A stretch of 64,000 nt of DNA from Candidatus Nomurabacteria bacterium. Lineage in GTDB: Bacteria; Patescibacteriota; Saccharimonadia; JAGOAT01. Location of the stretch: the NCBI GenBank assembly GCA_020639315.1, contig JACKGM010000001.1:82511-146510 (forward strand), given 5' to 3'. The position numbers were made by a program, and so were the translations under genes. Under the pieces are notes generated by a model. The model worked only from the letters and a program-made list of their open reading frames with translations. It was not told the DNA's origin and did no database searches. Of the stretch, positions 20,169 through 41,240 are shown in pieces. Numbering within the stretch: the stretch's first letter is position 1; every line of letters begins with the position of its first letter.

Positions 20169-20332
20169 TATAGCAAGTTAAAAACAAAACCAGACTTTTG
20201 ACCCAACTCTAGAGTCTATAAAGCTAGTTTTCTTACTCACCATATCTATGGATATGGCTCTTAAGAAGAACTACCTTTCTAGTTCTCTATAGTACAGCTC
20301 AAATTGTCCGGTTTTGCTTTGAGCTTGCTATA
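20169..20332. mobile_element. Family-B MITE (inverted orientation relative to 15161-15326)
   Basis: TATAGCAAGTTAAAAACAAAACCAGACTTTTGACC ... GGTTTTGCTTTGAGCTTGCTATA. Confidence 0.75.
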
Positions 20333-21544: not shown

Positions 21545-22085
21545 GGTGGGATACTGGATCCCCCGTAATCCTCTATGAGGTTTCGGAGGATGACTAATGC
21601 GCGAGATACTGGATCCCCCGTAAGTTCTCTGAACTTCGGAGGATGACAAGGCAAGGGACGGGTTTCGGAGGATGACTAGACAAGGGACGGGTTTCGGAGG
21701 ATGACAATGCCCTTTCCCGTGTCATCCTCGACTTTTCCGCCCTTCATTTGAAGGAAAAGTTGGGGGATCCAGAACTCTAGATAATGGGTTAGGTGATACA
21801 GTTTAATTTATGTTTATTGTTAGTTTTCTGGATACCCAGAGCAAGCTCTAAGTATGACGAATACAAGTGCAAAATACTGGATCCCCCGTAAACCCTTCGG
21901 GTTTCGGAGGATGACAATGCCCTTTCCGGTGTCATCTTCGGATTTCTCCAAGGGAGAAATACCGGAGATCCAGTATTTGAGTTAGACCCATGGAAGTGCG
22001 AGATACTGGATCCCCCGTAAGTTCTCTGAACTTCGGAGGATGACAAGGCAAGGGACGGGTTTCGGAGGATGACAGGAGAGGGGCG
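21545..22085. repeat. Large intergenic mosaic: about 6 full hairpin units, 3-4 half units, module D
   Basis: Reverse units at 21551-21595, 21607-21651, 21875-21918 and 22003-22047. Forward long-stem variant at 21720-21775. Forward subtype-2 unit at 21930-21978. Half units AAGGGACGGGTTTCGGAGGATGAC three times. Module D at 21778-21870. Confidence 0.85.
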
Positions 22086-23211: not shown

Positions 23212-24534
23212 CTACTTACACTCCCATTGCCAAGCTTGACCATTGGCAAACATTTTGGCCGCCATATCAATCTGCTGATGACCATCCCAGATATCTCCTC
23301 CCCCATTGCCATACCAAGTGCTAGGTAGATATTGGAATAGTCCGATTGCTCGATTGGCGGCCAAAGCTTGATCTGGAGTAAGACCACTACTGCGTCCGTT
23401 GTAATTACTAGCATCCCCCTTGCTCTCACAATACATTACTCGCATTAACTGAGTAACATCTGCTCCATATTTACTAGCAGCCTGCTCTACATATGGTCTC
23501 CAGTATTCGACAGAACCAGAATAAGTAGTATAGGTCCCCTTGACCACTACCCTACTAGTAGGAGCGACAATCACTTCCTCAGATAGTAGCTTACGCTCAG
23601 TCAGCTCACCATCTAGACTAGTATCTTGATAAGTGATAAGTTTCTTGCCCTTCTTGCCTTCGACTCTGACCTCTTCCCAACCTACAGGCTTACTATGCTC
23701 ATAGATGACCTCTTCTCCATAATCAATTTCTACTAATTCTTCTGATCGATCTTCACTATAGCGACTAATCTTGATCTCCATGCCAGGAGTGATCAGATCA
23801 GATGTACTGACTGATAGCTGATCATCTGGCTCCAACTCTACATGATTGGTACCAAGCAAATCAGCTACTGTAATAGGCTCCGAGTCTTGTTCAAAAAAGT
23901 GTCTCAATACAATCTCTGATCCAGCTAGATTGAGATATATTGGATCTGCTCGCTCAATATCCAATTTTTGACCGATGATACCATCTTCTACTGGGTCTAC
24001 GACTCCTTCAAGGTTGACCCTATCTTCTTCAAACAAGGAAATACCAGCACTAGCCGCTATTTCTCTCGGTTGACTCAATCCAGTATTGATCACCTGAGCA
24101 AACTTGCCATTGTCATAGATCTTGACTGGCAAAGCTTTGTGGATCACTACATCGACTACTCCCGGCTGGATCTCTGTATAAGGGCTGGGACTAATATAAT
24201 CACCTTCGGAAATCGGAACCTTGAGTTCATCTAGGGCTGCCCCGACTGTATTGGCTGAGCTAATCAAAGTCTTGGTCGTGCCACCCTCATTCAATCTAAT
24301 GATTCGGTTTTGATTGGTACCCTGGAGATCAAAGTTGGTATTGTGAACCACAAGTCCGATCATTAGAATCGTAGCTAGACTGGCAAAAGCATATCGGTAT
24401 TTTGCAAATAGACCCCTTAGCTGATCTACTGGACTGACCAACCGCTTGCTGGATCTGGGCTTTTTGACTTGATCGATTGCCCCAATTGGTGGGTACTTAC
24501 TTGCTTGATCGAGCTTTGGTTTGACTTGATTCAA
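23212..24534 (-). CDS. RpfB-like cell-wall protein (TM anchor, DUF348-like repeats, G5 domain, C-terminal Rpf/transglycosylase-like domain)
   Basis: C-terminus YCESKGDASNY...IGLFQYLPSTWYGNGGG...AAKMFANGQAWQWEC resembles the resuscitation-promoting-factor lysozyme-like domain. The start is uncertain: TTG 24534 is the first canonical start codon, but the frame stays open 78 codons further upstream. Confidence 0.75.
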   Translation of the reverse strand: MNQVKPKLDQASKYPPIGAIDQVKKPRSSKRLVSPVDQLRGLFAKYRYAFASLATILMIGLVVHNTNFDLQGTNQNRIIRLNEGGTTKTLISSANTVGAALDELKVPISEGDYISPSPYTEIQPGVVDVVIHKALPVKIYDNGKFAQVINTGLSQPREIAASAGISLFEEDRVNLEGVVDPVEDGIIGQKLDIERADPIYLNLAGSEIVLRHFFEQDSEPITVADLLGTNHVELEPDDQLSVSTSDLITPGMEIKISRYSEDRSEELVEIDYGEEVIYEHSKPVGWEEVRVEGKKGKKLITYQDTSLDGELTERKLLSEEVIVAPTSRVVVKGTYTTYSGSVEYWRPYVEQAASKYGADVTQLMRVMYCESKGDASNYNGRSSGLTPDQALAANRAIGLFQYLPSTWYGNGGGDIWDGHQQIDMAAKMFANGQAWQWECK

Positions 24535-24784
24535 GTTTTGTCTAGAAGCGTGACTAGTAGCTGAGTTTTGGGTGGGTTTTGAGGGGTTATCTTGACTAGG
24601 AACAGCAAAATTAACTACTGGGCTGGAGACTCTAGCCTGACCAGTATTGCGGGATTTTGACCTAACTGCATTGCTATAAATCAGTTGTCCAGTTGGTTGA
24701 ACTCTGCGCTTAGCTTTTGGCTTGGGACTGATATCTGATACTAAAATCTTACCCTCACTACTTAATACTCATTGTATATTTACA

Positions 24785-24813
24785 ATTTTAGCTAGAATAA
24801 TTTATTTGGTCAA
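24785..24813 (-). promoter_or_regulatory. Canonical sigma-70-type promoter for the RpfB-like gene
   Basis: Minus-strand TTGACC (24813-24808), 17-nt spacer, TAAAAT (24790-24785). Confidence 0.6.
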
Positions 24814-24834
24814 TAGAGAGCTATCGTGTAAACT
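24806..24834 (+). promoter_or_regulatory. Divergent promoter for ORF 24841, with its -35 overlapping the opposite promoter's -35
   Basis: TTGGTC (24806-24811), 17-nt spacer, TAAACT (24829-24834), then 6 nt to the ATG. TTGGTCAA is shared face-to-face with TTGACC on the other strand. Confidence 0.5.
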
Positions 24835-24840
24835 ATAGCT

Positions 24841-25368
24841 ATGGATATAATTATAGAAAACAACCAAGTAACCCTGACTATCAACAAAGCCCAAATTGCT
24901 CTGAATCACCCAGATCCAAAGGCTCAAGTCATATTGTCTAGTACCCCAGCTGACTATTCAAAGAGTTACAAAGGTCTGGTGTTCGATTCTCCAGGAGAGT
25001 ATGAAGTCAATAGTATTATGATTGATGGGATCTATCTTGATCCTGGCCATAGTGCTTATACCCTAGAAAATAACTTTATACACTGTCTCTGGCTGGCGGA
25101 TTACGATCAGACCCCTAGCGAAAAACAATTTGACCAACTAGATCAGGTCAATGTCTTGGTGATTTCTCTAGACAATACGAACTTTGACGATATTGATAAG
25201 CTAATTAAGATGGTTGAGCCAATCATCGTAGTAGCCTATGGTAATGACTCTGACAAAAAAGCTACCTTCAAAAAAGAAGTTAGCCAGTCTGAGACTCTTG
25301 ATAAAAATAAACTCAAAATTAGCAAAAAAGACCTCGAGGTTGAGACTACTAGCTATTACCTAGTATAA
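24841..25368 (+). CDS. Hypothetical protein, possibly a degenerate metallo-beta-lactamase-fold (Lactamase_B_3-like) protein
   Basis: 175 aa. SPGEYEVNSIMIDGI resembles the GPGEYE..gv.i.G strand of small UlaG-like MBL-fold proteins, but no HxHxDH motif is seen. Confidence 0.4.
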   Translation: MDIIIENNQVTLTINKAQIALNHPDPKAQVILSSTPADYSKSYKGLVFDSPGEYEVNSIMIDGIYLDPGHSAYTLENNFIHCLWLADYDQTPSEKQFDQLDQVNVLVISLDNTNFDDIDKLIKMVEPIIVVAYGNDSDKKATFKKEVSQSETLDKNKLKISKKDLEVETTSYYLV

Positions 25369-25374
25369 CAACTT

Positions 25375-25955
25375 AAATACTGGATCTCCGGTATTTATCT
25401 TTTAGAGAAATCCGAAGATGACGAAGAAGAGGCGGAAATTTGGTTTGGTGACCCAATTCCTGTCATCCTCCGAAACTGCCCCTGTATTGTCATCCTCCGA
25501 AACCTGCCTCTCTCTTGTCATCCTCCGAAGTTCAGAGAACTTACGGGGATCCAGCATCTTTGCATTTGCATTCGTCATACTCAGAGCTTGCTCTGGGTAT
25601 CCAGAAACAACAACAAACATTAAAAGTAACTGGGTTAATTTAAGTGCATTATCTAGAGTTATGGATCCCCAACTTTTCCTTCAAGTGAAGGGCGGAAAAG
25701 TCGAGGATGACTCGACTCTTGTCATCCTCCGAAACCTGCCTCTCTTGTCTTCCTCCGAAGTTCGGAGAACTTACGGGGGATCCAGTATTCTGGCATTGTG
25801 CATTGTCTTCCTCCGAATTCTCCTTGAGAGAATTACGGGGGATCCAGTATCTCGCATTTCTGGAATCCAATCCAGATACTGGATCTCCGGTATTTCTCTA
25901 AAGAGAAATCCGAAGATGACAGGAGGAGGGTATTATCATCCTCCGAAACTCCGAA
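25375..25955. repeat. Large intergenic mosaic: about 7 full hairpin units, about 4 half units, inverted module D
   Basis: Subtype-2 reverse units at 25377-25423 and 25873-25920. 28-nt-spaced half units 25452-25507 ending in full unit 25508-25555. Forward units at 25745-25790 and 25808-25853. Long-stem variant at 25661-25712. Confidence 0.85.
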
Positions 25956-26001
25956 GGATATACATATGTACATTAATAGAATTGTATGATAGGATAGACA
26001 T

Positions 26002-26292
26002 ATGAGCTATCAAGTAAGTGCTCCGATCAGTACCAAGGTATTTCGCAATGGCAACAGTAGGGCTTTGAGAATTCCTAGCACAACCTTACCTGATATTCAG
26101 CCGGGGGATATAGTAGAAGTAATATTGAGAAAAAAGAAGCAAGCGCGAGCTGGATGGGATCAACAGTTTAAGACAGCGGTTGCGAAGTCTAACAAAGTTG
26201 TCAGTGACCAATACGGTCAGCTCGATAATGACTGGGCAATATCGGATGGGCTAGATAGGGAGGAAGATTGGGGGTTTGTTGATCAAGGTTGA
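26002..26292 (+). CDS. mazE: AbrB/MazE-type antitoxin
   Basis: N-terminal swapped-hairpin motif VFRNGNSRALRIPS. 96 aa. Overlaps the downstream MazF-type gene by 17 nt. Confidence 0.7.
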   Translation: MSYQVSAPISTKVFRNGNSRALRIPSTTLPDIQPGDIVEVILRKKKQARAGWDQQFKTAVAKSNKVVSDQYGQLDNDWAISDGLDREEDWGFVDQG

Positions 26293-26605
26293 AAGAGGAG
26301 CGATCTATATGGCTTATCTCGATCCTGTGGTCGGTAGAGAGCAACGAGGCAGAAGGCCAGTGGTGGTGATTTCACCTAGTGAGATTCAGGATAATCTGGA
26401 TCGAGCAATAGTAGTACCATTTACTACTCAGAAAAAAGACTACCCTACTTATTGGAGTTATAAGCTAAAGGGCAAGACTAGTTACGCTATGCTTGATCAG
26501 ATTAGGACTTTGGATTTGAAACGTTTGCAAAATAAAGTGACTGAGTTGTCATCTGTTGAGCTCGCTAGATTGCTAGCTCGGGTTCAGGAATTGTTTGCTG
26601 TCTAA
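26276..26605 (+). CDS. mazF: MazF/PemK-family mRNA interferase toxin
   Basis: RGAIYMAYLDPVVGREQRGRRPVVVISP and ...MLDQIRTLDLKRL are typical of PemK/MazF. Confidence 0.85.
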   Translation: MLIKVERGAIYMAYLDPVVGREQRGRRPVVVISPSEIQDNLDRAIVVPFTTQKKDYPTYWSYKLKGKTSYAMLDQIRTLDLKRLQNKVTELSSVELARLLARVQELFAV

Positions 26606-26619
26606 TTGGTTGTATTGTG

Positions 26620-26745
26620 CCTTGTCATCCTCCGGTCAAATACTGGATCTCCGGGATTTCTCTAAAGAGAAATCCGAAGATGACAGGAGGAGGGCATTGT
26701 CATCCTCCGAAGTTCGGAGAACTTACGGGGGATCCAGTATTCGGC
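26620..26745. repeat. Hairpin-cassette doublet between the convergent mazF and rpmB genes
   Basis: Reverse subtype-2 unit 26640-26686, then GGAGGAGGGCAT, then forward subtype-1 unit 26698-26742. Confidence 0.85.
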
Positions 26746-26791
26746 ATTGTGTATCATTATCTCTTGAAAACAATGATAGAGGTATGGTTCG

Positions 26792-26998
26792 CTAGGCCTT
26801 GGCAGCAATCTTTTGCTTCTCAAGCTTGTTGAGAGTACGGATAGTTGAAGCTGCTAGCTTCAAGCGGACTTTTTGTCCATCGATAATAATGGTCTTTTTC
26901 TGAAGATTAGGCTTGAACACCCGCTTGGTTTTGCGCTGGGAATGAGAGACATTTTGCCCATACATTTTACCCTTGCCTGTAATATCACATTTGTACAT
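26792..26998 (-). CDS. rpmB: 50S ribosomal protein L28
   Basis: MYKCDITGKGKMYGQNVSHSQRKTKRVFKPNLQKK is a canonical L28 N-terminus. Confidence 0.9.
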   Translation of the reverse strand: MYKCDITGKGKMYGQNVSHSQRKTKRVFKPNLQKKTIIIDGQKVRLKLAASTIRTLNKLEKQKIAAKA

Positions 26999-27043
26999 AA
27001 CTTGGTTAGTATAGCATATCTATAAATATGACGCAATATCAAA

Positions 27044-28216
27044 TTAGCTAGCCAACCCAGGCATTGGTTGCCCAGAAACCAGCGCCAGACTAGCTCCACC
27101 ACCTGTCGAGACAAAGTCAAACTGATTTTCTAGCCCCAATTCCCGCACCAGACTGACTGTGTCCCCGCCACCGACCAGACTATAAGCCTTAGAGCTAGCA
27201 ATTGCTTGGGCTATCTGTTGACTGGCCTTGCGATATGCCCGTATCTCTGCCATACCTAGGTCTCCATTCCAAAATATTGTCTTTGCTTCAGCGATAATCT
27301 TGATCCAGGTTTGAATTGTTTGTTCTCCAATATCTAAGATGATATCTTGAGAGTTGACTGAATAAATGCCCTTATTGGTATGAGGTATATTAGCTCCTAT
27401 CTCCTTAGCAATTACCACATCAAATGGTAAAAACAACTTTACGCCCAAATCATTTGCTCTTTGAGTGATACGAATTGCCTCTGGACACAATTCTGGCTCA
27501 ACCAAACTATTCCCTACCTGATGATCGCTAGCCAATAAAAAGGTATTGGCCATTGCCCCGCCTATGATCAAAATGTCCACTTTACTTAGCAAACTTTCCA
27601 AAACCTGAAGCTTATCGGAAACCTTAGCTCCACCAATCACTGCCAGATAAGGTCTCTCCACCTCCCCAAGCAGTCTCCCAATTTGACCGACTTCATCCGC
27701 CATCAACTCTCCCCTTTCAAGTTCAAAACTCTTGATTCCAGCCTCGACACTACTATCAGCCCTGTGAGCAACTGCAAAAGCATCATTGATATAGACTAAA
27801 GTATCAAGGTCTTGGCTACTCACGCCAATCTTACGCAATATCTCCATAATATAGTTTGGATCATTGGCTTTCTCGCGTGGATCAAATCTCAAATTTTCAA
27901 GCATCACGATTGAACCGCTTGCCCAAACATCTTCGACTTTGACCTTCAGGCCTATTTCAAACTGATTGAGTAGTACTACCTCCCGGCCGAGCAACTTACT
28001 GAGCTCTGCTGCTACTGGTGCAAGGCTATACTTGAGATCACTAATCGTTTTTGGTCTACCTAAGTGACTAGCCAAAATCAGCCTATCTGTCCGCTCCAAA
28101 GCTTTGTCAATCGTATCAAGCCCTCTTACCAAACGATAATCATCGACTACCCTACCGTCTAGGATTGGTACATTATAATCCCCTCTGATCATTATCACTG
28201 GCTTATCTTTTGTCAT
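27044..28216 (-). CDS. pgk: Phosphoglycerate kinase
   Basis: RGDYNVP, AHRA, GGGDT and STGGGASL motifs. GGAGGT Shine-Dalgarno. Confidence 0.95.
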   Translation of the reverse strand: MTKDKPVIMIRGDYNVPILDGRVVDDYRLVRGLDTIDKALERTDRLILASHLGRPKTISDLKYSLAPVAAELSKLLGREVVLLNQFEIGLKVKVEDVWASGSIVMLENLRFDPREKANDPNYIMEILRKIGVSSQDLDTLVYINDAFAVAHRADSSVEAGIKSFELERGELMADEVGQIGRLLGEVERPYLAVIGGAKVSDKLQVLESLLSKVDILIIGGAMANTFLLASDHQVGNSLVEPELCPEAIRITQRANDLGVKLFLPFDVVIAKEIGANIPHTNKGIYSVNSQDIILDIGEQTIQTWIKIIAEAKTIFWNGDLGMAEIRAYRKASQQIAQAIASSKAYSLVGGGDTVSLVRELGLENQFDFVSTGGGASLALVSGQPMPGLAS

Positions 28217-28246
28217 TGTCTTGTTACCTCCATAATTATTATTTTA

Positions 28247-30475
28247 TTATTTCACCCACCACCCAAAGGTCGAACCTTGACCATTACTGACTGGGGAGGA
28301 GAAAAAGATTCCTCCTCCGTGATCTTCTGTCACTCTCTTGACTAGATAGATACCTAGACCTGTGCCATCACTTCTAGTTCTTTGGGCATTGTCTGCTCGA
28401 TAGAATTTAGAGAAGAGTTTGGCTTGTTTGTCAGGAGGTACACCGATACCAGTGTCTGTCACCTGAAAGACTGGGTAGAGGACACTCTCTAGGTCCCCAC
28501 TGAAGTCTGGCTTGGAAGCGATGTCTGAGGATTGGATGATTGCTTTTAATTCGCTTACGCTTAGAAGCTTAAGAGTTAGCTTGATTGTTCCCTCTTGGGT
28601 ATAGTAGATAGCATTATCAATTAGATTCATCACTGCTTGACGGATTTTGGCTTTGTCTAAAGCTTGAGGGGGGATGTCTTCAAGGTCTGTTACTAGCCTT
28701 AACCCCTTGTCCTCAATACTAGGGATTAGATTCTCTAGCTCTTGCTTGATTAGTTCCTTGAGGTCTACTGCTTCTCTCTGGATGAAGAATCGATCTTGGG
28801 AGATTCTTGAGACATTGAGTAGGTCGTTGATGGTAGAATCCATATTGCCGACAGTGGTCATAATCCTTCTAGCAGCCATTGTTTGATCTGAGGTAGCCTT
28901 ACCTAGCTCTCCGGTGATAAAGAGGTCACTATAGCCCCTAATCGTAGTGATTGGGGTCTTTAGTTGATGAGATGCCATTGAGAGGAATTCATCCTTGGCT
29001 TTGTCTAGAGCTCTTAGGTTCTTGTTGGCAGTGCGGAGTTTTTCGGTAGCAGACTTAACTTTATGCTGGAGAGTGACATTGAAGTCTTCGATTTTAGCTA
29101 CTGCTAGGGCATTGTCTAGGGCGATTGCTAAATCATTTGAAACAATTGAGAGAGTGGAGTAATCTAAGCTATTGTAGATGTCACCACTTCTCTTTCCGCC
29201 TAAAAGTAAGTAGCCATTGAGTTTTTTGTTGTTTACTAGGGGGAAGATCATACTGAGGCTATTTTTCTGCATGAAAAACTTTTTGTCGCTCTCAGTCAAC
29301 TCGTCATAGACCGCAGGTTCTTTACCGAAGAGTTGGGGTACTTGACTAATCTCACCATATGATCTGAATAGTCCCTTCTTGCCTGATTTCATAAAGTTTT
29401 GGTTGTTTCTAAAGTATTCTTGACCATCATCGTCTAAGACTAGTATGTTACCTCTCTCGGTTTTGATCGTAGTGTAGATCAGGGCTAGAGTCTTACTAGC
29501 GATTGGGGCAAGCTTGTAATTGGAAGAATAGACATCTCCTAGCTTAGTCAATAGAGCTTGAGCATCATAACGATTTCTAAAGAATAGTTGATCGGTCAAT
29601 CTCTCAAAGAACTTTCTTAGGATTGGGAAGGTCAGGGCTAGGAGGGTGGCTAGGAGGATGTAGGCAACCAACTTGGCTACAGTAAATGTATTGTCGTCCT
29701 CCAGTACTAGTCCAATTCCAAAAAATAAAACAGCACTATAAAGCAAGACTAAGCTAAAGAGAGTAACGGTATAGAAAAAGGATCTCGCTAAAGTTGCCCG
29801 GATATCAAAAAGCTGTCTTTTTGATATCGCAAAAGCATTAAAAGTCGAAAATATGATCAGGAGCAAAGGAGCAGAACGAATACTCCAGCTGATACCAAAC
29901 ACTACTGGCATAATAATATTGGTAGTTACCCCTAGGTTGATAATAACGATTAACCCGATGGCAATCAGCTTGAGCTGGCTTTTCTGATAAATATCTACTT
30001 GCTGATAGGCAACTCGAAAAGCCAAAGCGGTATAAAATACCAAAATCATGAAGCTCACTGCATACAAGGGGAACAAATCACCCGTGATCGGCTTACTTGG
30101 AGCTGTCGTAATATCTACTCCACTAATTATCTGCTCTGATACTAGCGTCACGAAGGCCATAATGCCTGCCATCGAGATCACAAGATAATGCTGATACTTG
30201 CTCATAGGCTTACGCATGAAGACTGTTGCTAGCCCAAAGACTGATCCGACGATCATATAGCTAAAGCTGTAACCAAGCCGATGCCCAAACAGCTTGAGGT
30301 CATAGCTAGCACCATAATCACTAATATATGTCCCGATCAACCAAACGATTGAGCTAAGATTGGACAAAGCATACCACTGAATCGCTCGGGCATGATAATT
30401 GCGCAAAAGAATTACTAGCCCGACAATCCCGACAGTAGTGATCGCGAGTCCGCTAAGCAAAGTATAGTTATCCAT
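28247..30475 (-). CDS. Sensor histidine kinase HK1 (polytopic ~7-8 TM sensor, GAF-like, HisKA, HATPase_c)
   Basis: H-box SHQLKTPITTIRGY, N-box NLIDNAIYYT, G-boxes DTGIGVP / GTGLGIYLV. Start placed at ATG 30475 (MDNYTLLSG); GTG 30520 is an alternative. The C-terminal ~470 aa are identical to HK3. Confidence 0.85.
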   Translation of the reverse strand: MDNYTLLSGLAITTVGIVGLVILLRNYHARAIQWYALSNLSSIVWLIGTYISDYGASYDLKLFGHRLGYSFSYMIVGSVFGLATVFMRKPMSKYQHYLVISMAGIMAFVTLVSEQIISGVDITTAPSKPITGDLFPLYAVSFMILVFYTALAFRVAYQQVDIYQKSQLKLIAIGLIVIINLGVTTNIIMPVVFGISWSIRSAPLLLIIFSTFNAFAISKRQLFDIRATLARSFFYTVTLFSLVLLYSAVLFFGIGLVLEDDNTFTVAKLVAYILLATLLALTFPILRKFFERLTDQLFFRNRYDAQALLTKLGDVYSSNYKLAPIASKTLALIYTTIKTERGNILVLDDDGQEYFRNNQNFMKSGKKGLFRSYGEISQVPQLFGKEPAVYDELTESDKKFFMQKNSLSMIFPLVNNKKLNGYLLLGGKRSGDIYNSLDYSTLSIVSNDLAIALDNALAVAKIEDFNVTLQHKVKSATEKLRTANKNLRALDKAKDEFLSMASHQLKTPITTIRGYSDLFITGELGKATSDQTMAARRIMTTVGNMDSTINDLLNVSRISQDRFFIQREAVDLKELIKQELENLIPSIEDKGLRLVTDLEDIPPQALDKAKIRQAVMNLIDNAIYYTQEGTIKLTLKLLSVSELKAIIQSSDIASKPDFSGDLESVLYPVFQVTDTGIGVPPDKQAKLFSKFYRADNAQRTRSDGTGLGIYLVKRVTEDHGGGIFFSSPVSNGQGSTFGWWVK
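28255..29662. repeat. 1408-bp direct repeat, copy 1 (3' part of HK1)
   Basis: Base for base the same, as far as I can compare by eye, as 32611-34018 (constant offset 4356). The antisense ORFs 28674-28886 and 33030-33242 are identical. Confidence 0.85.
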
Positions 30476-32618
30476 CACTTCTCCTAGTATATGGTATCCA
30501 AACTCCGAAGACCGAACCACCTTCTGGACTGATAGGTGATCTAAAAATCACATTGCCATAATGGATTCTAGCGATTTCTCGTACTAGGTATATACCTAGC
30601 CCATTACCATCTGGTCTGACTGTCTTGGCATTGCTGGCTCGGTAAAATTTAGTAAATAGTTGCTTTTGTTTGCTCTCAGGTACCCCAATCCCAGTATCAG
30701 TGACATAAAAAGCTAGGTATTTACGACGAGGAGCGATTGCTTCTCCACCTAGAGACCCCAGCTGACGAAGTTGGCTACCAGTCAAGACTTTTGCTGATAC
30801 CCTGATCTGACCTCGGTCAGTATACTGAATTGCATTATCTATCAGATTGATTACTACTTGCCTCAGTTTGCCACCATCAGCAAAGATCTTGATTGGCTCT
30901 GGCAAATCAAGTATTAGATCCAAACCTTGCTTGATTGAAACTTTCCGATAGTGATACTCTTCCTCGACCATAGCACCAAAATCAAAGCTAGCTTTACTAA
31001 TCACCAATCTACCTTGAGCCAATCTAGAAGTAGCGAGCAGGTCCTCCAATAACTGGTTCATGTTTTGACCAGCTTGATTGATCTGACTGAGGATCTGCTT
31101 TTGCTCTGAGGTAATATGACCAAACTCTCCGTCAACCAACATCTCACTATACCCCCTGATCGTAGTGAGTGGAGTTCTAAGCTGATGTGATGCGATCGAG
31201 ATAAACTCATCCTTACTTTTGTCCAAGGCCTTGAGCTTTTCTAGGGTATCTTTCAGACGGTAATTAACCTTGGCATTATCTAGGGCAACCGCCAAATCTC
31301 CAGCTACTATTTCAATCGTTTGATAGTCATTTTCGGTATATATATCGCGACTCACTTTTTGACCAAGCACAATATGTCCGACTAGTTTACCCTTAAGAAT
31401 CATTGGAAAAATCAGTTCTGCCCCCTGACTCTTTAATTGATGCAAGGTAGCAGTATCCAAAATATGATCGACAAATATCACCTCATCCTTCAGGTAATGC
31501 CAATTCTTGGTATTAAAAATCTTATAATTAGTTGCATGGCTAAATGCAATCCGATTATGCTCATAGACAATTATCTGCAGATTCTCAAGTCCCATCTGGT
31601 CTACTATGACCTTTGCAGTATCCTTGATCATGGCTTCAAGCTTGAGATCTCTTGCTAAAATCCTACTGACTTCTCCAATCAATTGACCAGGATAGTAGTG
31701 ATAATGGTAAAACCACTTATAAGTATTTTTTTCAAAAAATCCAAGCATCGGCTGAAATAGTACGGCCAAGATAATAATGATCGGAATGAAGGCTAAGCGC
31801 TCAGGAGTAGTCAGCTTATGATCAAGACCAATTAAGCTTCCTAGATAATAACTTGCAAATAAACTGTAGATAATTGCTAATACAATGACTGCTACGCTAA
31901 AAGCCAAAGACCTACTAAAGATTAGTTTGAGATCGAATATCTTGTTTCTGAGGATTACATAAGAGTTGACAATCACCATCCCCGCCATTACAAATAATCC
32001 GATTTGACTGACCCAACCGTCGTTGATTAGGCTTGGCAAGACCAAGTTGGTCAAGACTACCAGGCTAATCCCGGTAGCATAAGTGGTCAGCATTACCTTG
32101 ATCTGAATCTTTTTGACATTTTCGACAGTATCCATTGCCCTGAGTAAATTTCTAATCGAAGGCAAAAGGACTGCAAACAAAATCACCACAAAGCTCCAAT
32201 AGTATCTACCCTTTTGGTCTACCAAAAACCCATCTTGATTCTGATAGCCTGCGACTACCTGATCAGTCAAGAGAATAGCCGAGTAAACCAATCCAAAAAT
32301 CCAAAGTTTGATCTTGCCAAGCCGGCTAAAGGGTTTGATTTCTCCCAAGTAAGCCCGACTCATTCCATAAAAAGCAATGATTGATAAAAACCCAAAAACA
32401 AATGTCAGGCGATTAGCAAAAATCGTGATCTGATCGCTAATAAACAAGCTTGCTACCAATGTAGCAACCTGCCAAAGCCCTCCAGTCAAAGCAAAGCCTA
32501 GAAACCAATGTGAAAGTCTACGATTCATCCCCCGCTTGAATACTAATCCACCAAAAACAAAGAGGATTAAAACTGGGATAATCGAAGTGATGACTATCTG
32601 ATTCACTTGACCCACCAC
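30468..32618 (-). CDS. Sensor histidine kinase HK2 (same architecture, diverged paralogue)
   Basis: H-box SHQLRTPLTTIRGY, NLIDNAIQYT, DTGIGVP, GNGLGIYLV. An alternative start GTG 32606 would give a GTGA overlap with the HK3 stop. Confidence 0.85.
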   Translation of the reverse strand: MVGQVNQIVITSIIPVLILFVFGGLVFKRGMNRRLSHWFLGFALTGGLWQVATLVASLFISDQITIFANRLTFVFGFLSIIAFYGMSRAYLGEIKPFSRLGKIKLWIFGLVYSAILLTDQVVAGYQNQDGFLVDQKGRYYWSFVVILFAVLLPSIRNLLRAMDTVENVKKIQIKVMLTTYATGISLVVLTNLVLPSLINDGWVSQIGLFVMAGMVIVNSYVILRNKIFDLKLIFSRSLAFSVAVIVLAIIYSLFASYYLGSLIGLDHKLTTPERLAFIPIIIILAVLFQPMLGFFEKNTYKWFYHYHYYPGQLIGEVSRILARDLKLEAMIKDTAKVIVDQMGLENLQIIVYEHNRIAFSHATNYKIFNTKNWHYLKDEVIFVDHILDTATLHQLKSQGAELIFPMILKGKLVGHIVLGQKVSRDIYTENDYQTIEIVAGDLAVALDNAKVNYRLKDTLEKLKALDKSKDEFISIASHQLRTPLTTIRGYSEMLVDGEFGHITSEQKQILSQINQAGQNMNQLLEDLLATSRLAQGRLVISKASFDFGAMVEEEYHYRKVSIKQGLDLILDLPEPIKIFADGGKLRQVVINLIDNAIQYTDRGQIRVSAKVLTGSQLRQLGSLGGEAIAPRRKYLAFYVTDTGIGVPESKQKQLFTKFYRASNAKTVRPDGNGLGIYLVREIARIHYGNVIFRSPISPEGGSVFGVWIPYTRRSDG

Positions 32619-34834
32619 CCAAAGGTCGAACCTTGACCATTACTGACTGGGGAGGAGAAAAAGATTCCTCCTCCGTGATCTTCTGTCACTCTCTTGACTA
32701 GATAGATACCTAGACCTGTGCCATCACTTCTAGTTCTTTGGGCATTGTCTGCTCGATAGAATTTAGAGAAGAGTTTGGCTTGTTTGTCAGGAGGTACACC
32801 GATACCAGTGTCTGTCACCTGAAAGACTGGGTAGAGGACACTCTCTAGGTCCCCACTGAAGTCTGGCTTGGAAGCGATGTCTGAGGATTGGATGATTGCT
32901 TTTAATTCGCTTACGCTTAGAAGCTTAAGAGTTAGCTTGATTGTTCCCTCTTGGGTATAGTAGATAGCATTATCAATTAGATTCATCACTGCTTGACGGA
33001 TTTTGGCTTTGTCTAAAGCTTGAGGGGGGATGTCTTCAAGGTCTGTTACTAGCCTTAACCCCTTGTCCTCAATACTAGGGATTAGATTCTCTAGCTCTTG
33101 CTTGATTAGTTCCTTGAGGTCTACTGCTTCTCTCTGGATGAAGAATCGATCTTGGGAGATTCTTGAGACATTGAGTAGGTCGTTGATGGTAGAATCCATA
33201 TTGCCGACAGTGGTCATAATCCTTCTAGCAGCCATTGTTTGATCTGAGGTAGCCTTACCTAGCTCTCCGGTGATAAAGAGGTCACTATAGCCCCTAATCG
33301 TAGTGATTGGGGTCTTTAGTTGATGAGATGCCATTGAGAGGAATTCATCCTTGGCTTTGTCTAGAGCTCTTAGGTTCTTGTTGGCAGTGCGGAGTTTTTC
33401 GGTAGCAGACTTAACTTTATGCTGGAGAGTGACATTGAAGTCTTCGATTTTAGCTACTGCTAGGGCATTGTCTAGGGCGATTGCTAAATCATTTGAAACA
33501 ATTGAGAGAGTGGAGTAATCTAAGCTATTGTAGATGTCACCACTTCTCTTTCCGCCTAAAAGTAAGTAGCCATTGAGTTTTTTGTTGTTTACTAGGGGGA
33601 AGATCATACTGAGGCTATTTTTCTGCATGAAAAACTTTTTGTCGCTCTCAGTCAACTCGTCATAGACCGCAGGTTCTTTACCGAAGAGTTGGGGTACTTG
33701 ACTAATCTCACCATATGATCTGAATAGTCCCTTCTTGCCTGATTTCATAAAGTTTTGGTTGTTTCTAAAGTATTCTTGACCATCATCGTCTAAGACTAGT
33801 ATGTTACCTCTCTCGGTTTTGATCGTAGTGTAGATCAGGGCTAGAGTCTTACTAGCGATTGGGGCAAGCTTGTAATTGGAAGAATAGACATCTCCTAGCT
33901 TAGTCAATAGAGCTTGAGCATCATAACGATTTCTAAAGAATAGTTGATCGGTCAATCTCTCAAAGAACTTTCTTAGGATTGGGAAGGTCAGGGCTAGGAG
34001 GGTGGCTAGGAGGATGTAAGTTGCCTGCTGGATTGGAGAAATCTCCCGACCGAGTGGGAATATCCAGAGAGTTGCCCCATAGCCTATGACTATGAATAGG
34101 ATTGCAATTAGGGTGAGAGTGAGGTAGTAGAATAGTGCCCGGACGGTCCATTTGTTGATGTCAAATAGCTTATATTTAGCAATGCTATAACTTGTACTAC
34201 CAACAAGCACAATAGAAAATAGTGGACCAAGTTTAGATAAAGCCCAGTTGCCGGTGATGATTGGTATTATGCCATTTGTAATAGACGCAAAAAAAGCAAA
34301 AATAACCGTTCCGATGATTATATATTTAATCTGATTTTTCTTATCATCATATATCGTATCCAAAGACCTATACCCATTAATAAGGTTTCTAAAAAAAGCT
34401 ATTAAGAAAACCACCAAAGTACCTATATAAACTATATATAGATTATTAAACTCTGGATGGAAGCCAGTATTATCCACGCTTGCTCCAATAATCATAAGGT
34501 CAGAGAAAGCAAGGATACAGGCTAGTATCGAAGAGGTTAAAATAATAACCCTATCATACCTAGATAGAACATTATATATAAATACTTTTGAAAAACTCCA
34601 AATCAATAGTACTAAAAAGTACGCCGAAAAAAAAGCTACTCTGTTAAAAAAATACTTTAACTCAAAGGTGCTAGCAAAGTCTGTATAATAGTTACTGATT
34701 ATCCACACACTAGTAGCTATCGAAAAAATAAAATATATAATATAGTTTATTCCTTTTTGATTCCTAATATATGTAAAGTAACCCAACAGAGAGTTTAGTA
34801 GGGATATCACTATAACCAATAAGAATAACACCAT
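32603..34834 (-). CDS. Sensor histidine kinase HK3 (distinct polytopic sensor; cytoplasmic module identical to HK1)
   Basis: N-terminal ~270 aa are unrelated in sequence to HK1 but equally polytopic. From YILLATLLALTFPILRKFF onward identical to HK1. Confidence 0.85.
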   Translation of the reverse strand: MVLFLLVIVISLLNSLLGYFTYIRNQKGINYIIYFIFSIATSVWIISNYYTDFASTFELKYFFNRVAFFSAYFLVLLIWSFSKVFIYNVLSRYDRVIILTSSILACILAFSDLMIIGASVDNTGFHPEFNNLYIVYIGTLVVFLIAFFRNLINGYRSLDTIYDDKKNQIKYIIIGTVIFAFFASITNGIIPIITGNWALSKLGPLFSIVLVGSTSYSIAKYKLFDINKWTVRALFYYLTLTLIAILFIVIGYGATLWIFPLGREISPIQQATYILLATLLALTFPILRKFFERLTDQLFFRNRYDAQALLTKLGDVYSSNYKLAPIASKTLALIYTTIKTERGNILVLDDDGQEYFRNNQNFMKSGKKGLFRSYGEISQVPQLFGKEPAVYDELTESDKKFFMQKNSLSMIFPLVNNKKLNGYLLLGGKRSGDIYNSLDYSTLSIVSNDLAIALDNALAVAKIEDFNVTLQHKVKSATEKLRTANKNLRALDKAKDEFLSMASHQLKTPITTIRGYSDLFITGELGKATSDQTMAARRIMTTVGNMDSTINDLLNVSRISQDRFFIQREAVDLKELIKQELENLIPSIEDKGLRLVTDLEDIPPQALDKAKIRQAVMNLIDNAIYYTQEGTIKLTLKLLSVSELKAIIQSSDIASKPDFSGDLESVLYPVFQVTDTGIGVPPDKQAKLFSKFYRADNAQRTRSDGTGLGIYLVKRVTEDHGGGIFFSSPVSNGQGSTFGWWVK
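32611..34018. repeat. 1408-bp direct repeat, copy 2 (3' part of HK3)
   Basis: See 28255-29662. The last three codons and stop differ just outside the repeat (GTG AAA TAA versus GTC AAG TGA). Confidence 0.85.
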
Positions 34835-34880
34835 TATAATCTTACTAAAACACTAATATATTAACAAGAATATGAATATA

Positions 34881-35762
34881 TTAAAAAGGAGCTTCTTTAC
34901 CCATATAAAATATTTCTTGAATACCAATTCCCTGAGCTAATAATCTGTATAGTCCATCTTCAGTATGTCTATTCTTAAAGTCTTCCCTGAGTCTATTAGG
35001 GACACCAAACACTGGTGTACTCCTTGGGGAATCTAGATATGGTTTGGCTTCTACGCCAGGATATGTATCAAAAAATAAACCAAACCCTTCTAGATGCTTA
35101 AGCACCCTATCGTCTAGTATAGCAAACCATAGATCTACATTATTGGCTTTTGAGAACTCATTTAAACCATAAAACAACCCTAATATAATATAATCTGAAA
35201 TATCTTCTTCTGATCTTCTATCTTCTCTTCTGAATCCTTTTCTGATAGCTATTGTAGCAATATCTAAACCCACTACACCCATGTCTGTTAAGTCTTTTGA
35301 AGATCTTACTTCTCGACCATTTACCATAACATTCTCTCTCCCCCAACCTCTATTATCATTATCTATGGGGTCTAAAAAAACATCGTCTAAGCTAATCATT
35401 CCTGTCTCCGTATTCTCGATTAATCTCATCGTTCCAACAGGAGTATTGTTTCTTCTATCTACTATTAAAATAAAGTGGCTTGAATCTTCATATTTTTTAT
35501 ATGTATCTCGCATCATCTCGGCTGTGTTGCTTGGAAACCTACCTTCAAATGCTTCACGTTCTATAGTTCTCGCAATATTACTTACTGGATCATTATTTTT
35601 GCTATGTATTAATACAAATGGTTGCTTATCACCTCCTAGCCAATTGGGCGACCCTAGTAATTCACTCAGTAGACTTATAATTTCTGAGTCATTAAGAGCA
35701 TAATTAGGATTACTATCAACTATACTGTATTCGCCAGTATAGCCTTTATTATCAGGAAACAT
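34881..35762 (-). CDS. GNAT-superfamily N-acyltransferase-like protein (FeeM / autoinducer-synthase-fold-like, tentative)
   Basis: 293 aa. The pattern EREAF...Y.KYEDSSHFILIVDRRNNTPVGTMRLIENT...ISLDDVF and a later DIATIAIRKGFR block resemble the N-acyl amino acid synthase / LuxI-like acyltransferase layout. No exact motif confirmed. Confidence 0.35.
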   Translation of the reverse strand: MFPDNKGYTGEYSIVDSNPNYALNDSEIISLLSELLGSPNWLGGDKQPFVLIHSKNNDPVSNIARTIEREAFEGRFPSNTAEMMRDTYKKYEDSSHFILIVDRRNNTPVGTMRLIENTETGMISLDDVFLDPIDNDNRGWGRENVMVNGREVRSSKDLTDMGVVGLDIATIAIRKGFRREDRRSEEDISDYIILGLFYGLNEFSKANNVDLWFAILDDRVLKHLEGFGLFFDTYPGVEAKPYLDSPRSTPVFGVPNRLREDFKNRHTEDGLYRLLAQGIGIQEIFYMGKEAPF

Positions 35763-35770
35763 AATAATTC

Positions 35771-36112
35771 TTAAAACTCTTTAATCTCAATAGAACTAGT
35801 TTCAAAATAATCAGCGGTAAACCTTGTTGCTTCCTCAATATCAAACTTCTTACAAGTATATATATCTACGCTAAAAAATAGTCTTGGTCGCTCCCAGGCA
35901 TAAAAATGTGCTCCCGAAGTTTCCCAATGGATCCATCCAGCCCAGCCAAACTTATCGGATCTATGAGTTACAGGACTTAATAATGTGTGCATTTTAAGAA
36001 CATCTGAGAGTTCTGATAGATAATCCTTGATCTCTCGATCTGAAATCGGCTTTAATGGATAACCCTCTATCACTAACCTTTGTCTATAAATATTGGGTGC
36101 TAAATCTTTCAT
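35771..36112 (-). CDS. S-adenosylmethionine decarboxylase-like (SpeH/PF02675-type) small protein
   Basis: 113 aa. GWAGWIHWETSGAHFYAWERPRLFFSVDIYTCKKFDIEEA aligns by eye with T. maritima SpeH (recalled from memory) [40 protein letters not shown]. The processing-site context reads ETS instead of ES. Confidence 0.55.
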   Translation of the reverse strand: MKDLAPNIYRQRLVIEGYPLKPISDREIKDYLSELSDVLKMHTLLSPVTHRSDKFGWAGWIHWETSGAHFYAWERPRLFFSVDIYTCKKFDIEEATRFTADYFETSSIEIKEF

Positions 36113-36224
36113 ACTGACTATATTGTAAATAATATTTAACTCTTAGAACACTACAACATTTTTATTATACCATAATATAATAAACCTTTCTCCGGCCAGA
36201 AGCTAGCTCCGGCCGGATTGTTGA

Positions 36225-37307
36225 CTACCTACCTAATATTAGTGGTATACTTTTAACTTTCTCCAAAATAGGGAATGGTAATAGTATAACTGCACTCAAT
36301 ATCTGTCCTAGTAATACCAAAGTTAAGACTGCAATATCCCCCTGTCCAAAACCAGACTCAATACCAAGCATTGGATCAGCAGAATCAATTAAATAAACAA
36401 AGTTTGGCTTAATCAGATATTGTGCCAAAATCACTGCTGTCCCTAGAACCGGGACATTGTGTACAATGAACCACATTCTACCCTGACCCCTAGTCATGCC
36501 CATGTCTCGCGTTGTATTAATGATCGGCTTTAGCCAAGTCGACATTGTCAACATGGTTAATACATAGAATGGCAACATTACAAAAGCGATAATTCCCGCC
36601 ATTGTCATCACCAGACCCCCCACGCTATCTTCCCCATATCCCCTGTTGTTATCCATGAAATTCTCATGAGCTATAACAGTATAACCTGGTATAGTGGTTA
36701 CTAGGGCTAAATCAGGGTCAAGAGTTAGTCCAAGACTGTAACCTTTTCCTGGTTCCGATATTCCTGTAAAATCCTGCATAGTTACGTAGACTCCTGAGCC
36801 ACCTGCGCCAGCAGTACCCTTTACAAAGCCAGACACTTCTAACTCAATAGATGAAACTTCAAGTTGACCTCCTATTTCCACATGACAACTATCCTTGATA
36901 GTTTCATCTATAAGAACTTGTCCTGGATTTGGCCAATTACCTTGTGTCACCTTGGGGAAAAGGTTACTTTGACTGGCAAAAATTATAATGGGTTGAGAAC
37001 ACTGCATGTCCACTGTAGAGGCAGTAGAATACTTTCTAGATACCCCTATCCAACCATCCGGGAGATCAAACATTACTTCTGGATCTTGAACCATATTATT
37101 AGATCCGTCTTGAACAAGCCAAAAGGCTTGTTCAAGCCCAGGAAGCGACATTAGATTATCCCCACTCTCCTTAACGGCTGTACGAATATTTAGCACTACC
37201 GGCAACATCGCAATCACCAGTGCTATCATAAACGCAAGAATAAAAAAAGAAAACTTCTTACTCCACCAATGACGAACCGTTGAAATAATTGCGTACTTCA
37301 GGTGCAT
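36225..37307 (-). CDS. FtsX/MacB-like ABC-transporter permease, no adjacent ATPase
   Basis: N-terminal TM (LKYAIISTVRHWWSKKFSFFILAF...), ~200-aa extracytoplasmic domain, three C-terminal TM helices with a TTRDMGMTRGQG loop (equivalent to the R.EIG.lrA.G motif). Start moved to ATG 37307. Confidence 0.55.
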   Translation of the reverse strand: MHLKYAIISTVRHWWSKKFSFFILAFMIALVIAMLPVVLNIRTAVKESGDNLMSLPGLEQAFWLVQDGSNNMVQDPEVMFDLPDGWIGVSRKYSTASTVDMQCSQPIIIFASQSNLFPKVTQGNWPNPGQVLIDETIKDSCHVEIGGQLEVSSIELEVSGFVKGTAGAGGSGVYVTMQDFTGISEPGKGYSLGLTLDPDLALVTTIPGYTVIAHENFMDNNRGYGEDSVGGLVMTMAGIIAFVMLPFYVLTMLTMSTWLKPIINTTRDMGMTRGQGRMWFIVHNVPVLGTAVILAQYLIKPNFVYLIDSADPMLGIESGFGQGDIAVLTLVLLGQILSAVILLPFPILEKVKSIPLILGR

Positions 37308-37603
37308 TTTGTACCTTTCTGATATTGGTAGTATGTACAATCAACACCCCCATACTACCATAATATGGGACTAATAGGAAATCTGAGAGTAAATGGGATA
37401 AGGCTAGAGCCAACTGGCCACTAATACTTAACCGGCTTAGTATTCATTTTGAAGGGAGAATTGGAATGTAAATTGTGTGAGCTAATCAGTGGGAGTTTAC
37501 ACAATGGGGTTGACAGTCTGAGTTTGGTCTCTGATATACCCTAGACTAAGACTCCAACAGTGAGGTGCTTGACTAACTTAGTCCACCACTTTACGATTAG
37601 ACT

Positions 37604-37854
37604 ATGTCGGACCTAACTGTCCACAAGGCAAAAACCCATTTATCGAAAATCCTTCACCAAGTAGACCAAGGAAAAGAGTTCACTATCTACCGAGGTGACC
37701 AGCCAGTAGCCTTACAAACCTCGATCCCTAAACACAAAAAAAACAGCGTTCACCCGGTCTATGGCAAGACCCAGACAGTCCTATTAGCCCCGATCAACAG
37801 CTAGAGAGTCCTGACAATGCTGATACTATCATAGCTGAAATGTTCAATTCATGA
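37604..37854 (+). pseudogene. Phd/YefM-type antitoxin, frameshifted in an A8 run
   Basis: N-terminus MSDLTVHKAKTHLSKILHQVDQGKEFTIYRGDQPVA. Adding one A to the A8 run 37736-37743 restores ...GLWQDPDSP...AEMFNS*, ending in TGA 37852-37854, which forms ATGA with the toxin start. Confidence 0.6.
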
Positions 37855-38239
37855 ACAAGTACTTATTGGATACTCATATTCTGCTCTGATGGCTCTATGA
37901 TAGCAATAAACTTTCCAAAGATCATAGAGGGATTATTACCGACCCGATCAACAATGTTTTTTCTCAGCTATTAATATCTGGGAGATACTCTTAAGCTACA
38001 AGCTTGGTAAGCTGAAATTAACCGACTCAAATATTGATTCTTTAGCCAATCTTAGCTCCCTAACAGACCTACAAGAACTTAGCCTATCTACCAGCCACTT
38101 AGTGACCTTCCAGGAGATTGATTTCAAATATAATGACCCTTTTGACAACATCCTAATCTCCCAAGCAATAGCAGAAGATCTGACCCTACTAACCGTAGAC
38201 CGGAATATTCTTGACCAAGGTCTAGCCAAGACCTGCTAG
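37851..38239 (+). pseudogene. vapC: PIN-domain VapC-type toxin, inactivated (nonsense plus frameshift)
   Basis: MNKYLLDTHILL*WLYDS (TGA at 37887-37889, where family members have Trp). Frameshift in the T6 run 37957-37962. The shifted frame reads FFSAINIWEILLSYKLGKLKL...DPFDNILISQAIAEDLTLLTVDRNIL, the typical VapC C-terminus. Confidence 0.7.
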
Positions 38240-38249
38240 CTAGGACCAA

Positions 38250-38412
38250 TAACCCTGTTGCCATATAAACTTGCGAGGTCAAAGCTGATGATTTTTATTC
38301 CAGAATACCAAAACACGACAAAGCATAACAGGAGTTACGCTGCGAAGTGTTTTGCTATTCTGGGGCAAAAATGGCAGTTTTGAAGCCGTGAGGTTATATG
38401 GCAAAAGGGTTA
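38250..38412. mobile_element. MITE-like element, family C (copy C2)
   Basis: TAACCCTGTTGCCATATAAAC ... TATATGGCAAAAGGGTTA. Inverted relative to C1. Confidence 0.75.
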
Positions 38413-38436
38413 ATGTCTAGATCGGGAATTTAGTGG

Positions 38437-38598
38437 TATAGCAAGCTCAAAACAAAACCGGACAATTTGAGCTGTACTATAGAGAACTAGAAAGGTAGTT
38501 CTTCTTAAGAGCCATATTCATAGATATGGTGAGTAAGAAAACTAGCTTTATAGACTCTAGAGTGGGGTTAAAAGTCTGGTTTTGTTTTTAGCTTGCTA
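38437..38598. mobile_element. Family-B MITE inserted into a fragment of a family-A arm
   Basis: The flanks GGAATTTAGTGGTA and CAAGTCAGTGTGTTGGGTCTGTAAC correspond to the family-A arm GGAATTTAGTGGTAAGTCAGTGTGTTAGGTCTATAG. Confidence 0.7.
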
Positions 38599-38602
38599 CA
38601 AG

Positions 38603-41094: not shown

Positions 41095-41240
41095 AAATAC
41101 TGGATCCCCCGTAAGTTCTCCGAACTTCGGAGGATGACAATGCCCTCTGTATGTCATCTTCCAAATTCCTGTAGGAAATTATGGGAGATCCAGCATTTGA
41201 ATTGAAGCCTCAGAAATGCAAAATACTGGGTCCTGACTAT
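41095..41240. repeat. Hairpin-cassette doublet plus a partial unit
   Basis: Reverse unit 41098-41140, then ATGCCCTCTGTA, then forward subtype-2 unit 41150-41195. Partial reverse unit near 41224. Confidence 0.8.

Follow-up and report, generated by a model that had tools for sequence, protein, structure and literature searches.

A 64,000-nucleotide stretch of a metagenome-assembled genome (MAG) filed as Candidatus Nomurabacteria bacterium (GenBank assembly GCA_020639315.1, contig JACKGM010000001.1, positions 82,511 to 146,510; hereafter, the window) carries three consecutive genes for sensor histidine kinases, HK3, HK2 and HK1, which are followed by the phosphoglycerate kinase gene pgk, all four on the minus strand. 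The two outer genes, HK3 and HK1, encode different polytopic membrane sensors and share, over the 3' two thirds of their length, a nucleotide-identical DNA sequence for the remainder of the kinase, referred to as the transmitter. Comparison with a sister species, in which a perfect repeat of different sequence occupies the same place, points to intrachromosomal gene conversion that recurs between these tandem paralogues; lack of homology on either side would confine it to the repeat, and it would keep one transmitter under two sensors. We regard this explanation as very probable.

An exact repeat and its counterpart in a sister species

By sequence comparison, the repeat is direct, exact and 1409 bp in length, with window positions 28254-29662 (copy R_A, in HK1) matching 32610-34018 (copy R_B, in HK3) at a constant offset of 4356 and with 0 mismatches. 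The preliminary description of this DNA had claimed identity between 28255-29662 and 32611-34018; alignment bears this out, except that the exact run extends one base further at the low end. Just outside the repeat, mismatches occur at 266/354 and 267/438 positions, which is the random level and is reached within one codon at both ends. No other long perfect repeat was found within the window, the remaining repeats being at most 300 nt long and none of them perfect copies. At the protein level, the repeat gives HK1 and HK3 471 identical C-terminal residues (about 470 had been estimated).

The edges of the repeat are informative. At the 3' end, DNA identity leaves out the final 7 nt of the gene, and the last codons differ as previously noted (GTG AAA TAA in HK1, GTC AAG TGA in HK3), both spelling V-K-stop. 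The 5' edge is the TAC codon of YILLATLLALTF (Y of YILLA; Y273 of HK3), which falls at the start of a predicted helix comprising HK3 residues 267-299; this is the last membrane helix of the sensor, in agreement with the earlier placement of the breakpoint inside that helix. In the family alignment, conservation likewise starts at the last membrane helix (LAFTFQPLRRFFEK...), so that this helix marks a family-wide boundary between variable sensor and conserved transmitter. The longest exact DNA match is only 11 nt between the HK1 and HK3 sensors, and again 11 nt between the repeat and HK2; the sharpness of the edges and the exclusion of HK2 can be ascribed to this lack of any longer match between the paralogues outside the repeat. 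Nothing suggests a mobile element, since the coding content of the repeat is limited to kinase domains with homologues in HK2 and in other Saccharimonadia kinases, and neither a transposase or recombinase gene nor terminal repeats were detected. The copies contain no further open reading frame (ORF) of at least 100 amino acids (aa), as determined by a scan of the interval 24000-39000.

The decisive evidence comes from KA531, a sister species with ~77% DNA identity, represented by MAG GCA_017983775.1 (contig L022, 41.7 kb), in which the gene order HK3-HK2-HK1-pgk is identical. At the homologous position, KA531 possesses a direct repeat of its own, 1423 bp long and 100% identical between its copies (L022 793-2215 = 5155-6577). 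Between the two species, however, the repeats are only 77.8% identical at the DNA level (304 substitutions, 6 gaps) and 80.5% at the amino acid level, with a proportion of synonymous differences (pS) of 0.58. This divergence is the same as that of the single-copy neighbours, namely pgk, taken as the yardstick of interspecies divergence (77.2% DNA, 81.3% aa, pS 0.65), and HK2 (76.4% DNA, 82.7% aa, pS 0.71). The sensors are further apart, that of HK1 showing 72% DNA and 75.6% aa identity to its orthologue (pS 0.79) and that of HK3 67% and 58.1% (pS 0.81, dN, the nonsynonymous divergence, 0.30). Synonymous sites are thus near saturation between the species (pS 0.58-0.81; synonymous divergence, dS, of the repeat 1.1), the repeat having the lowest value of the locus, whereas within each genome the dS of the repeat is 0.

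Each sensor matches its own orthologue in KA531 (75.6% and 58% aa identity) far better than the other paralogue (26%), and this, together with the conserved gene order, dates the duplication to before the species split; the HK1 and HK3 sensors are old paralogues, judged from their sequences, with orthologues in both species. Identity within genomes, divergence between them and orthologous sensors together constitute the signature of concerted evolution, and protein-level constraint does not account for it, because synonymous sites are included in the identity. The tract is, moreover, stable in position, both edges agreeing within 7 nt between the species: in KA531, the 5' edge lies 7 nt earlier (A GTC ACC TAC) and the 3' edge falls on the stop codon, so that the tract of the window lineage is slightly shorter at both ends. 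Comparison with sister genomes had been among the checks suggested in the preliminary description. Its proposal of a gene conversion or duplication with a breakpoint at the domain boundary stands as regards conversion and the sensor/transmitter boundary, but not as a single, very recent event, considering that KA531 has a perfect pair of its own in the corresponding position and that the pairs differ by 22% between species.

An explanation close to the original one would be that two independent conversions or module replacements occurred, one in each lineage and each very recently, without sustained homogenisation. In its favour, there are just two lineages to judge from, and repeat alleles from close relatives of the window (L024 and L026, see below) differ in clustered patches, so identity is not always guaranteed. 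Against it stand the coincidence of the edges within 7 nt, which better fits an old, stable tract, and a simple calculation of our own. If one conversion took place at a random time since the split, at a distance of ~0.26 substitutions per site, the probability of finding 0 differences is ~1/(2 x 0.13 x 1409) = 0.003 per lineage and ~7e-6 for both. Conversion must, therefore, have been frequent relative to mutation, and we consider two one-off events very unlikely; the sequences instead argue for recurrent and long-lasting homogenisation, that is, concerted evolution by gene conversion.

Independent assemblies, strain variants and the mechanism

Two contigs produced by the WANG18-1 scaffolding pipeline and one MEGAHIT contig, all from ENA, extend the picture to close relatives of the window. 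The MEGAHIT contig (L024) carries HK2, the HK1 sensor, the repeat and pgk in this order at 98.76% identity to the window; its repeat differs from that of the window at 24 sites, 18 of which are clustered within 213 nt. In the first WANG18-1 scaffold (L026, 1-2803), an HK3-type sensor is linked to the repeat and pgk; it shares the pgk variants and five repeat variants of L024, carries other clustered differences, and begins with 430 nt that are non-homologous to the window at the DNA level and include a divergent sensor segment. The second (L025, 1-2868) links the HK1 sensor to the repeat and then to HK2.

These two linkages are the expected products of unequal recombination. They could indicate a recombination switch, in which unequal crossing-over between R_A and R_B deletes or amplifies a cassette of HK2 and the HK1 sensor while the identity of the repeats is a mere by-product; L026 would represent the deletion type and L025 the duplication or circle type. 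That recombination between the copies would delete HK2, as stated in the preliminary description, indeed follows from the arrangement. Equally, the linkages are what an assembler produces by choosing a path through a repeat that it cannot resolve. Both scaffolds derive from one short-read pipeline, and neither contains a novel junction, for which reason they are treated as probable path errors; arbitrary path choice suffices to explain them. Furthermore, a deletion would irreversibly lose HK2 and the HK1 sensor, yet both species retain the full array, and the region contains no recombinase gene or specific site. A switch of this kind is, thus, extremely unlikely.

Assembly or polishing artefacts, raised at the outset as an alternative, would have either written one module twice or collapsed near-identical copies into one consensus. 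All four repeat junctions are, however, present in other assemblies. A Logan contig (L001, SRR12358676) equals window positions 26725-28283 exactly; coming from pgk, it enters R_A for 30 nt and stops. Logan graphs are built with k=31, so this length is k-1, as a true branch at the edge of the repeat would leave. The other end of this contig lies inside a cluster of the interspersed unit described below. From MAG KC853 (GCA_020428505.1), an 8733-nt contig (L020) equals window positions 38325-29593 with one mismatch, runs through the HK3 sensor, R_B, HK2 and the sensor of HK1, and breaks off in R_A, 70 nt from the HK1-sensor side. A further Logan contig (L023, SRR28385526) equals 38276-32506, also with one mismatch. 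Neither L020 nor L023 shows any difference inside R_B, and both junctions of this copy are reproduced; the two contigs terminate within or next to the dispersed-repeat copy at 38247-38415.

For KA531, another assembly (L021) equals L022 4037-6577 with one single-nucleotide polymorphism and terminates exactly with the repeat's final base, and an ENA contig from yet another assembly (P0089) joins the HK3-type sensor of KA531 to the identical module, so that each copy is backed by a further assembly. Contigs thus end exactly at repeat edges, as is expected of a true graph branch, HK1 and HK3 each need the module in order to be complete kinases, and KA531 has the same structure with a different sequence. 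Against the wrong or ambiguous paths in L025 and L026 and the unbroken passage of L023 through R_B, this body of evidence from independent assemblies and the sister species (L001, L020, L021, L022, L023 and P0089) leads us to reject an artefact, to which we give next to no credence.

Several observations weigh against recurrent conversion as we describe it. Within the lineage that shows ~99% identity to the window, 35 clustered sites separate the repeat allele of L024, linked to HK1, from that of L026, linked to an HK3-type sensor; homogenisation may be incomplete in some strains, or the two contigs may stem from different genomes. If they share one genome, patchy, tract-wise conversion would be the reading. 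The unbroken passage of L023 at k=31 would not be expected with an identical R_A at the same coverage in that sample; low coverage or a strain difference could be the reason. In both MAGs, the "perfect" identity could be slightly inflated by short-read polishing or gap filling, and the collections searched contained only two species-level lineages of this clade.

The mechanism that we propose is a recurrent conversion, probably by a RecA-type pathway, acting on the 3'-terminal 1.4 kb shared by two old histidine kinase paralogues arranged in tandem. Conversion would start and end only within sequence that is already homologous. Upstream, the non-homologous sensor sequence would set the limit, placing the edge where the last membrane helix begins; downstream, the limit would be the unrelated sequence at or just before the stop codon. 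HK2 would be too diverged to join. The outermost bases of the repeat would be beyond rescue, and the edges could, presumably, only erode. The slightly shorter tract of the window lineage fits such homology-dependent conversion. As an outcome, one transmitter—last membrane helix, GAF-like domain, DHp and ATPase—would be kept under two different polytopic sensors of ~270 aa, and selection may favour the identity of the module.

A possible footprint of the process is seen in codon usage. At two-fold pyrimidine-ending codons, C/(C+T) is 0.53 in the window repeat, compared with 0.17-0.29 in the sensors, the HK2 module and pgk (Fisher p ~3.5e-6 for the repeat vs the HK2 module, and vs pgk) and 0.12-0.45 across the window's other 26 long ORFs; the corresponding values in KA531 are 0.45 for the repeat and 0.14-0.29 for sensors, HK2 module and pgk. 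The shift begins near the repeat edge, in the first sliding windows that hold repeat codons; on the plus strand, it shows up as an inverted GC skew. Purine-ending codons show no shift. Biased conversion is a candidate cause, but simple GC-biased conversion was not adopted, because only C, and not G, rises at third positions. A more far-reaching version of recurrent conversion would hold that identity itself is selected, with HK1 and HK3 acting as exchangeable heads that form mixed dimers and address one regulator, that a strand-biased conversion or repair process left the C-rich footprint, and that the repeats occasionally delete or amplify the cassette of HK2 and HK1 sensor. As a whole, this version appears unlikely; were it true, mixed HK1-HK3 dimers would amount to signal integration inside one kinase dimer.

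Architecture, partners and genomic context of the kinases

The coordinates of the genes, domains and repeats are compiled in the table. Adjacent kinase genes overlap: 8 nt are common to the HK1 start (ATG at 30475) and the HK2 stop, and HK2 probably starts at a GTG within a GTGA that also contains the HK3 stop, as is seen in the KA531 orthologue (alternative GTG starts are at 32615 and 32618). Searches for the exact products of HK3 and of two HK2 start variants returned no record, and the same holds for P0005; NCBI has other starts annotated. Scans of 26500-38700 for promoters and terminators gave results at chance level only, and, as no terminator-like site beyond chance lies between the genes, a single HK3-HK2-HK1-pgk transcript is plausible.

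Table. Features of the locus and of the surrounding window (window coordinates)
Feature	Position	Strand	Remarks
R_A, repeat copy A	28254..29662	-	3' 1409 nt of HK1, exact copy of R_B
R_B, repeat copy B	32610..34018	-	3' 1409 nt of HK3
HK1	28247..30475	-	742 aa; NCBI MCB9834513.1, H6792_00570; product P0086 starts MDNYTLL
HK1 polytopic membrane sensor	29663..30475	-	hydrophobic segments; unique to HK1
HK2, diverged middle paralogue	30468..32606	-	712 aa from probable GTG start 32606
HK3	32603..34834	-	743 aa; NCBI MCB9834515.1, H6792_00580; later NCBI start gives 630 aa
HK3 polytopic membrane sensor	34019..34834	-	unique to HK3; fastest-evolving part of the locus
GAF-like alpha/beta domain in R_B	33527..33919	-	HK3 residues ~306-436; R_A equivalent at offset -4356
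Signalling helix, DHp (His504) and catalytic ATP-binding domain in R_B	32612..33526	-	HK3 residues 437-741
pgk, phosphoglycerate kinase	27044..28216	-	390 aa; PF00162 371 bits; 30 nt downstream of HK1
293-aa protein directly upstream of HK3	34881-35762	-	weak autoinducer synthase similarity, PF00765 E 3e-3
AdoMet-decarboxylase-like gene	35771-36112	-	
MacB-like permease	36225-37340	-	
Interspersed-unit clusters	380-500, 1130-1450, 13560-15150, 21550-22070, 25480-25920, 26610-26750, 41095-41240, 48530-48780, 50640-50860		
Dispersed repeats	90-314 / 5348-5572; 15161-15337 / 20156-20332; 13698-13866 / 38247-38415 / 48976-49144; 38437-38601		

By sequence, HK1, HK2 and HK3 are assigned to the HisKA-type (class I) sensor histidine kinases. 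All three exceed the Pfam cut-offs, with HisKA (PF00512) scoring 50.6 bits in HK1 and HK3 and 64.8 bits in HK2 (cut-off 26.9), and HATPase_c (PF02518) ~72 bits (71.9 in HK1); in HK3, the matches span residues 494-560 and 608-741, respectively. In an alignment of 49 family sequences, the residues of the H, N, G1 and G2 boxes (H504, N622, D675/G677/G679 and G705/G707/G709) are invariant. With domains above cut-off and catalytic residues in invariant columns, HK1 and HK3 look functional. HK2, described earlier as a diverged third paralogue, is ~30% identical to both and does lie between them. The sensors of HK1 and HK3 had been called unrelated; in fact, they are diverged homologues, with 26% identity over ~270 residues of the N-terminal 300 (E = 8e-36), and each aligns with HK2 at ~20%. 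A 7TM sensor type is approached in HK2, which scores 27.1 bits for HisKA_7TM (PF16927; cut-off 28.6); HK1 and HK3 have no match, and homologues at 33-36% identity carry this domain.

An AlphaFold model of HK3 (mean predicted local distance difference test score, pLDDT, 85.6) comprises nine long N-terminal helices, the last being that of residues 267-299, followed by an alpha/beta domain (~306-436), a long helix (437-522) with His504, the second DHp helix and the ATP-binding domain (569-741). A Foldseek search with the whole model had a bacteriophytochrome as best match (536 aligned columns) and also retrieved HK853 chains (E ~1e-13, target TM-score ~0.7). The domain between the last membrane helix and the DHp had initially been labelled GAF. 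Its predicted alpha/beta fold (helices 306-338, strands 342-426) and the Pfam GAF matches of many homologues (PF13185 or PF01590) speak for this label, against which no Pfam GAF match was obtained for HK1 or HK3 at E <= 0.01, and HK2 has sub-threshold matches only (GAF_2, 22.3 bits; cut-off 28.6). On this weak support, a GAF identity is plausible.

As the preliminary description had noted, no response regulator is adjacent. The window contains a single regulator gene, of OmpR type, ~9 kb away (18581-19261, minus strand) and next to its own 386-aa kinase (17497-18657, minus strand). KA531 has an orthologue (78%) in the corresponding relative place, and the OmpR-type regulator is a candidate partner for the orphan kinases. 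In two-component systems, residues of the DHp domain determine both partner choice and dimerisation. Identical DHp domains should, therefore, direct HK1 and HK3 to the same response regulator and allow free HK1-HK3 heterodimerisation. The earlier idea of two inputs wired to one phosphotransfer specificity is, hence, supported through the identity of the modules.

Directly upstream of HK3, the 293-aa protein weakly resembles, besides autoinducer synthases, the PEP-CTERM/exosortase-associated acyltransferase TIGR03694 (E 1e-10, below cut-off); a sequence search of the PDB with this protein gave nothing meaningful. A conserved unit of signal synthase and sensor was considered but found no support, as the acyltransferase-, AdoMet_dc- and MacB-like genes are unlinked to the kinase family in more distant loci.

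Elsewhere in the window, intergenic clusters are formed by a short interspersed unit consisting of ATACTGGATCCCCCGTAA, a variable small hairpin and CGGAGGATGAC. Its core GGATCCCCCGTAA occurs 24 times with at most one mismatch, vs 0.04 expected; it corresponds to no Rfam family, and one unit that was folded did so no better than shuffled sequences. The Rfam scan of the window yielded two tRNAs only. Dispersed repeats of 165-225 nt, 94-99% identical and present in both orientations, form a second group; several end in ...TTGCTATATA just upstream of genes, and they may be repeated promoter or leader modules. A giant ORF (50846-63985, minus strand, 4379 aa) contains five tandem 162-nt units at 59050-59997 (82-94% identical) and has a likewise high C/(C+T) of 0.45. 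Finally, a contig of 99.99% identity has been deposited as Candidatus Saccharibacteria, and the relatives retrieved all belong to Saccharibacteria/Saccharimonadia; the NCBI label of the source MAG (locus prefix H6792), in which the window lies on a 445,775-bp contig, is probably a misclassification.

Relation to known systems

Beyond the two species, a scan of genome contigs of species representatives with HK3 retrieved only relatives of at most 37% identity, and a scan of metagenome contigs with the module only relatives of at most 46%. Self-comparison of the related loci (L002-L019 and L027-L060) revealed no other intra-locus kinase repeat, so the phenomenon appears clade-specific; those checked for paralogues (L002-L012) mostly have one member of this kinase family. 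In the literature on gene conversion or concerted evolution combined with histidine or sensor kinases, no kinase case was found.

In the usual view, duplicated kinases quickly diverge in their dimerisation and phosphotransfer surfaces and thereby avoid cross-talk. The HK1/HK3 locus represents the opposite: a nucleotide-identical transmitter is kept over near-saturated synonymous divergence, while the sensors evolve freely. It, thus, offers a natural experiment on many-to-one wiring, on kinase heterodimers and on the bounds of conversion tracts, in a reduced-genome, Saccharibacteria-type lineage with few signalling genes. There are also practical consequences, as short-read MAGs break or are mis-joined at the repeat, and a phylogeny of the kinase domains would misread HK1 and HK3 as recent duplicates.

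Well-known examples of concerted evolution include rRNA operons and tufA/tufB. Long-lasting concerted evolution of prokaryotic paralogues via recurrent gene conversion was described by Wang and Chen in 2018; their cases are mostly whole genes for subunits of stable complexes, and no kinase appears in the text (PMC6053082). There, as here, paralogues are closer within a genome than orthologues are between genomes, also at synonymous sites, and this is attributed to ongoing conversion. The present case differs in that only the 3' two thirds of the gene are converted, leaving the sensors free to diverge.

The closest parallel is provided by Tlp2, Tlp3 and Tlp4 of Campylobacter jejuni, whose sensory domains are ~30% identical while the cytoplasmic signalling domains are identical and follow the species tree (PMC9769880). 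Both systems consist of paralogous membrane receptors with one output module behind several sensors. However, the Tlp proteins are methyl-accepting chemotaxis proteins with dCache sensors encoded at dispersed loci, whereas the genes described here are tandem histidine kinases in a Saccharibacteria-type genome, and here, unlike in the Tlp case, identity is demonstrated at the DNA level in two species and the tract edges are mapped.

With regard to histidine kinases themselves, Alm et al. (2006) reported lineage-specific expansion, domain shuffling and orphan kinases, and described duplication followed by divergence and re-wiring, without mention of conversion or concerted evolution (PMC1630713). 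HK1 and HK3 resemble those kinases as tandem paralogues without an adjacent regulator, with a conserved core and differing upstream sensing parts; they depart from that model in that the kinase cores would be actively kept identical.

Many-to-one pathways are known from Vibrio, where LuxN, LuxQ and CqsS act on LuxU, and from Bacillus, where KinA-E act on Spo0F. The likeness lies in several sensors converging on one phosphoacceptor, as HK1 and HK3 would. In the LuxU and Spo0F pathways, however, the kinase domains are diverged and share specificity alone, whereas here convergence would follow from a nucleotide-identical DHp domain. While the process is, thus, a known one, its occurrence in this gene family and in this lineage is new, as are tract edges that are mapped and conserved.

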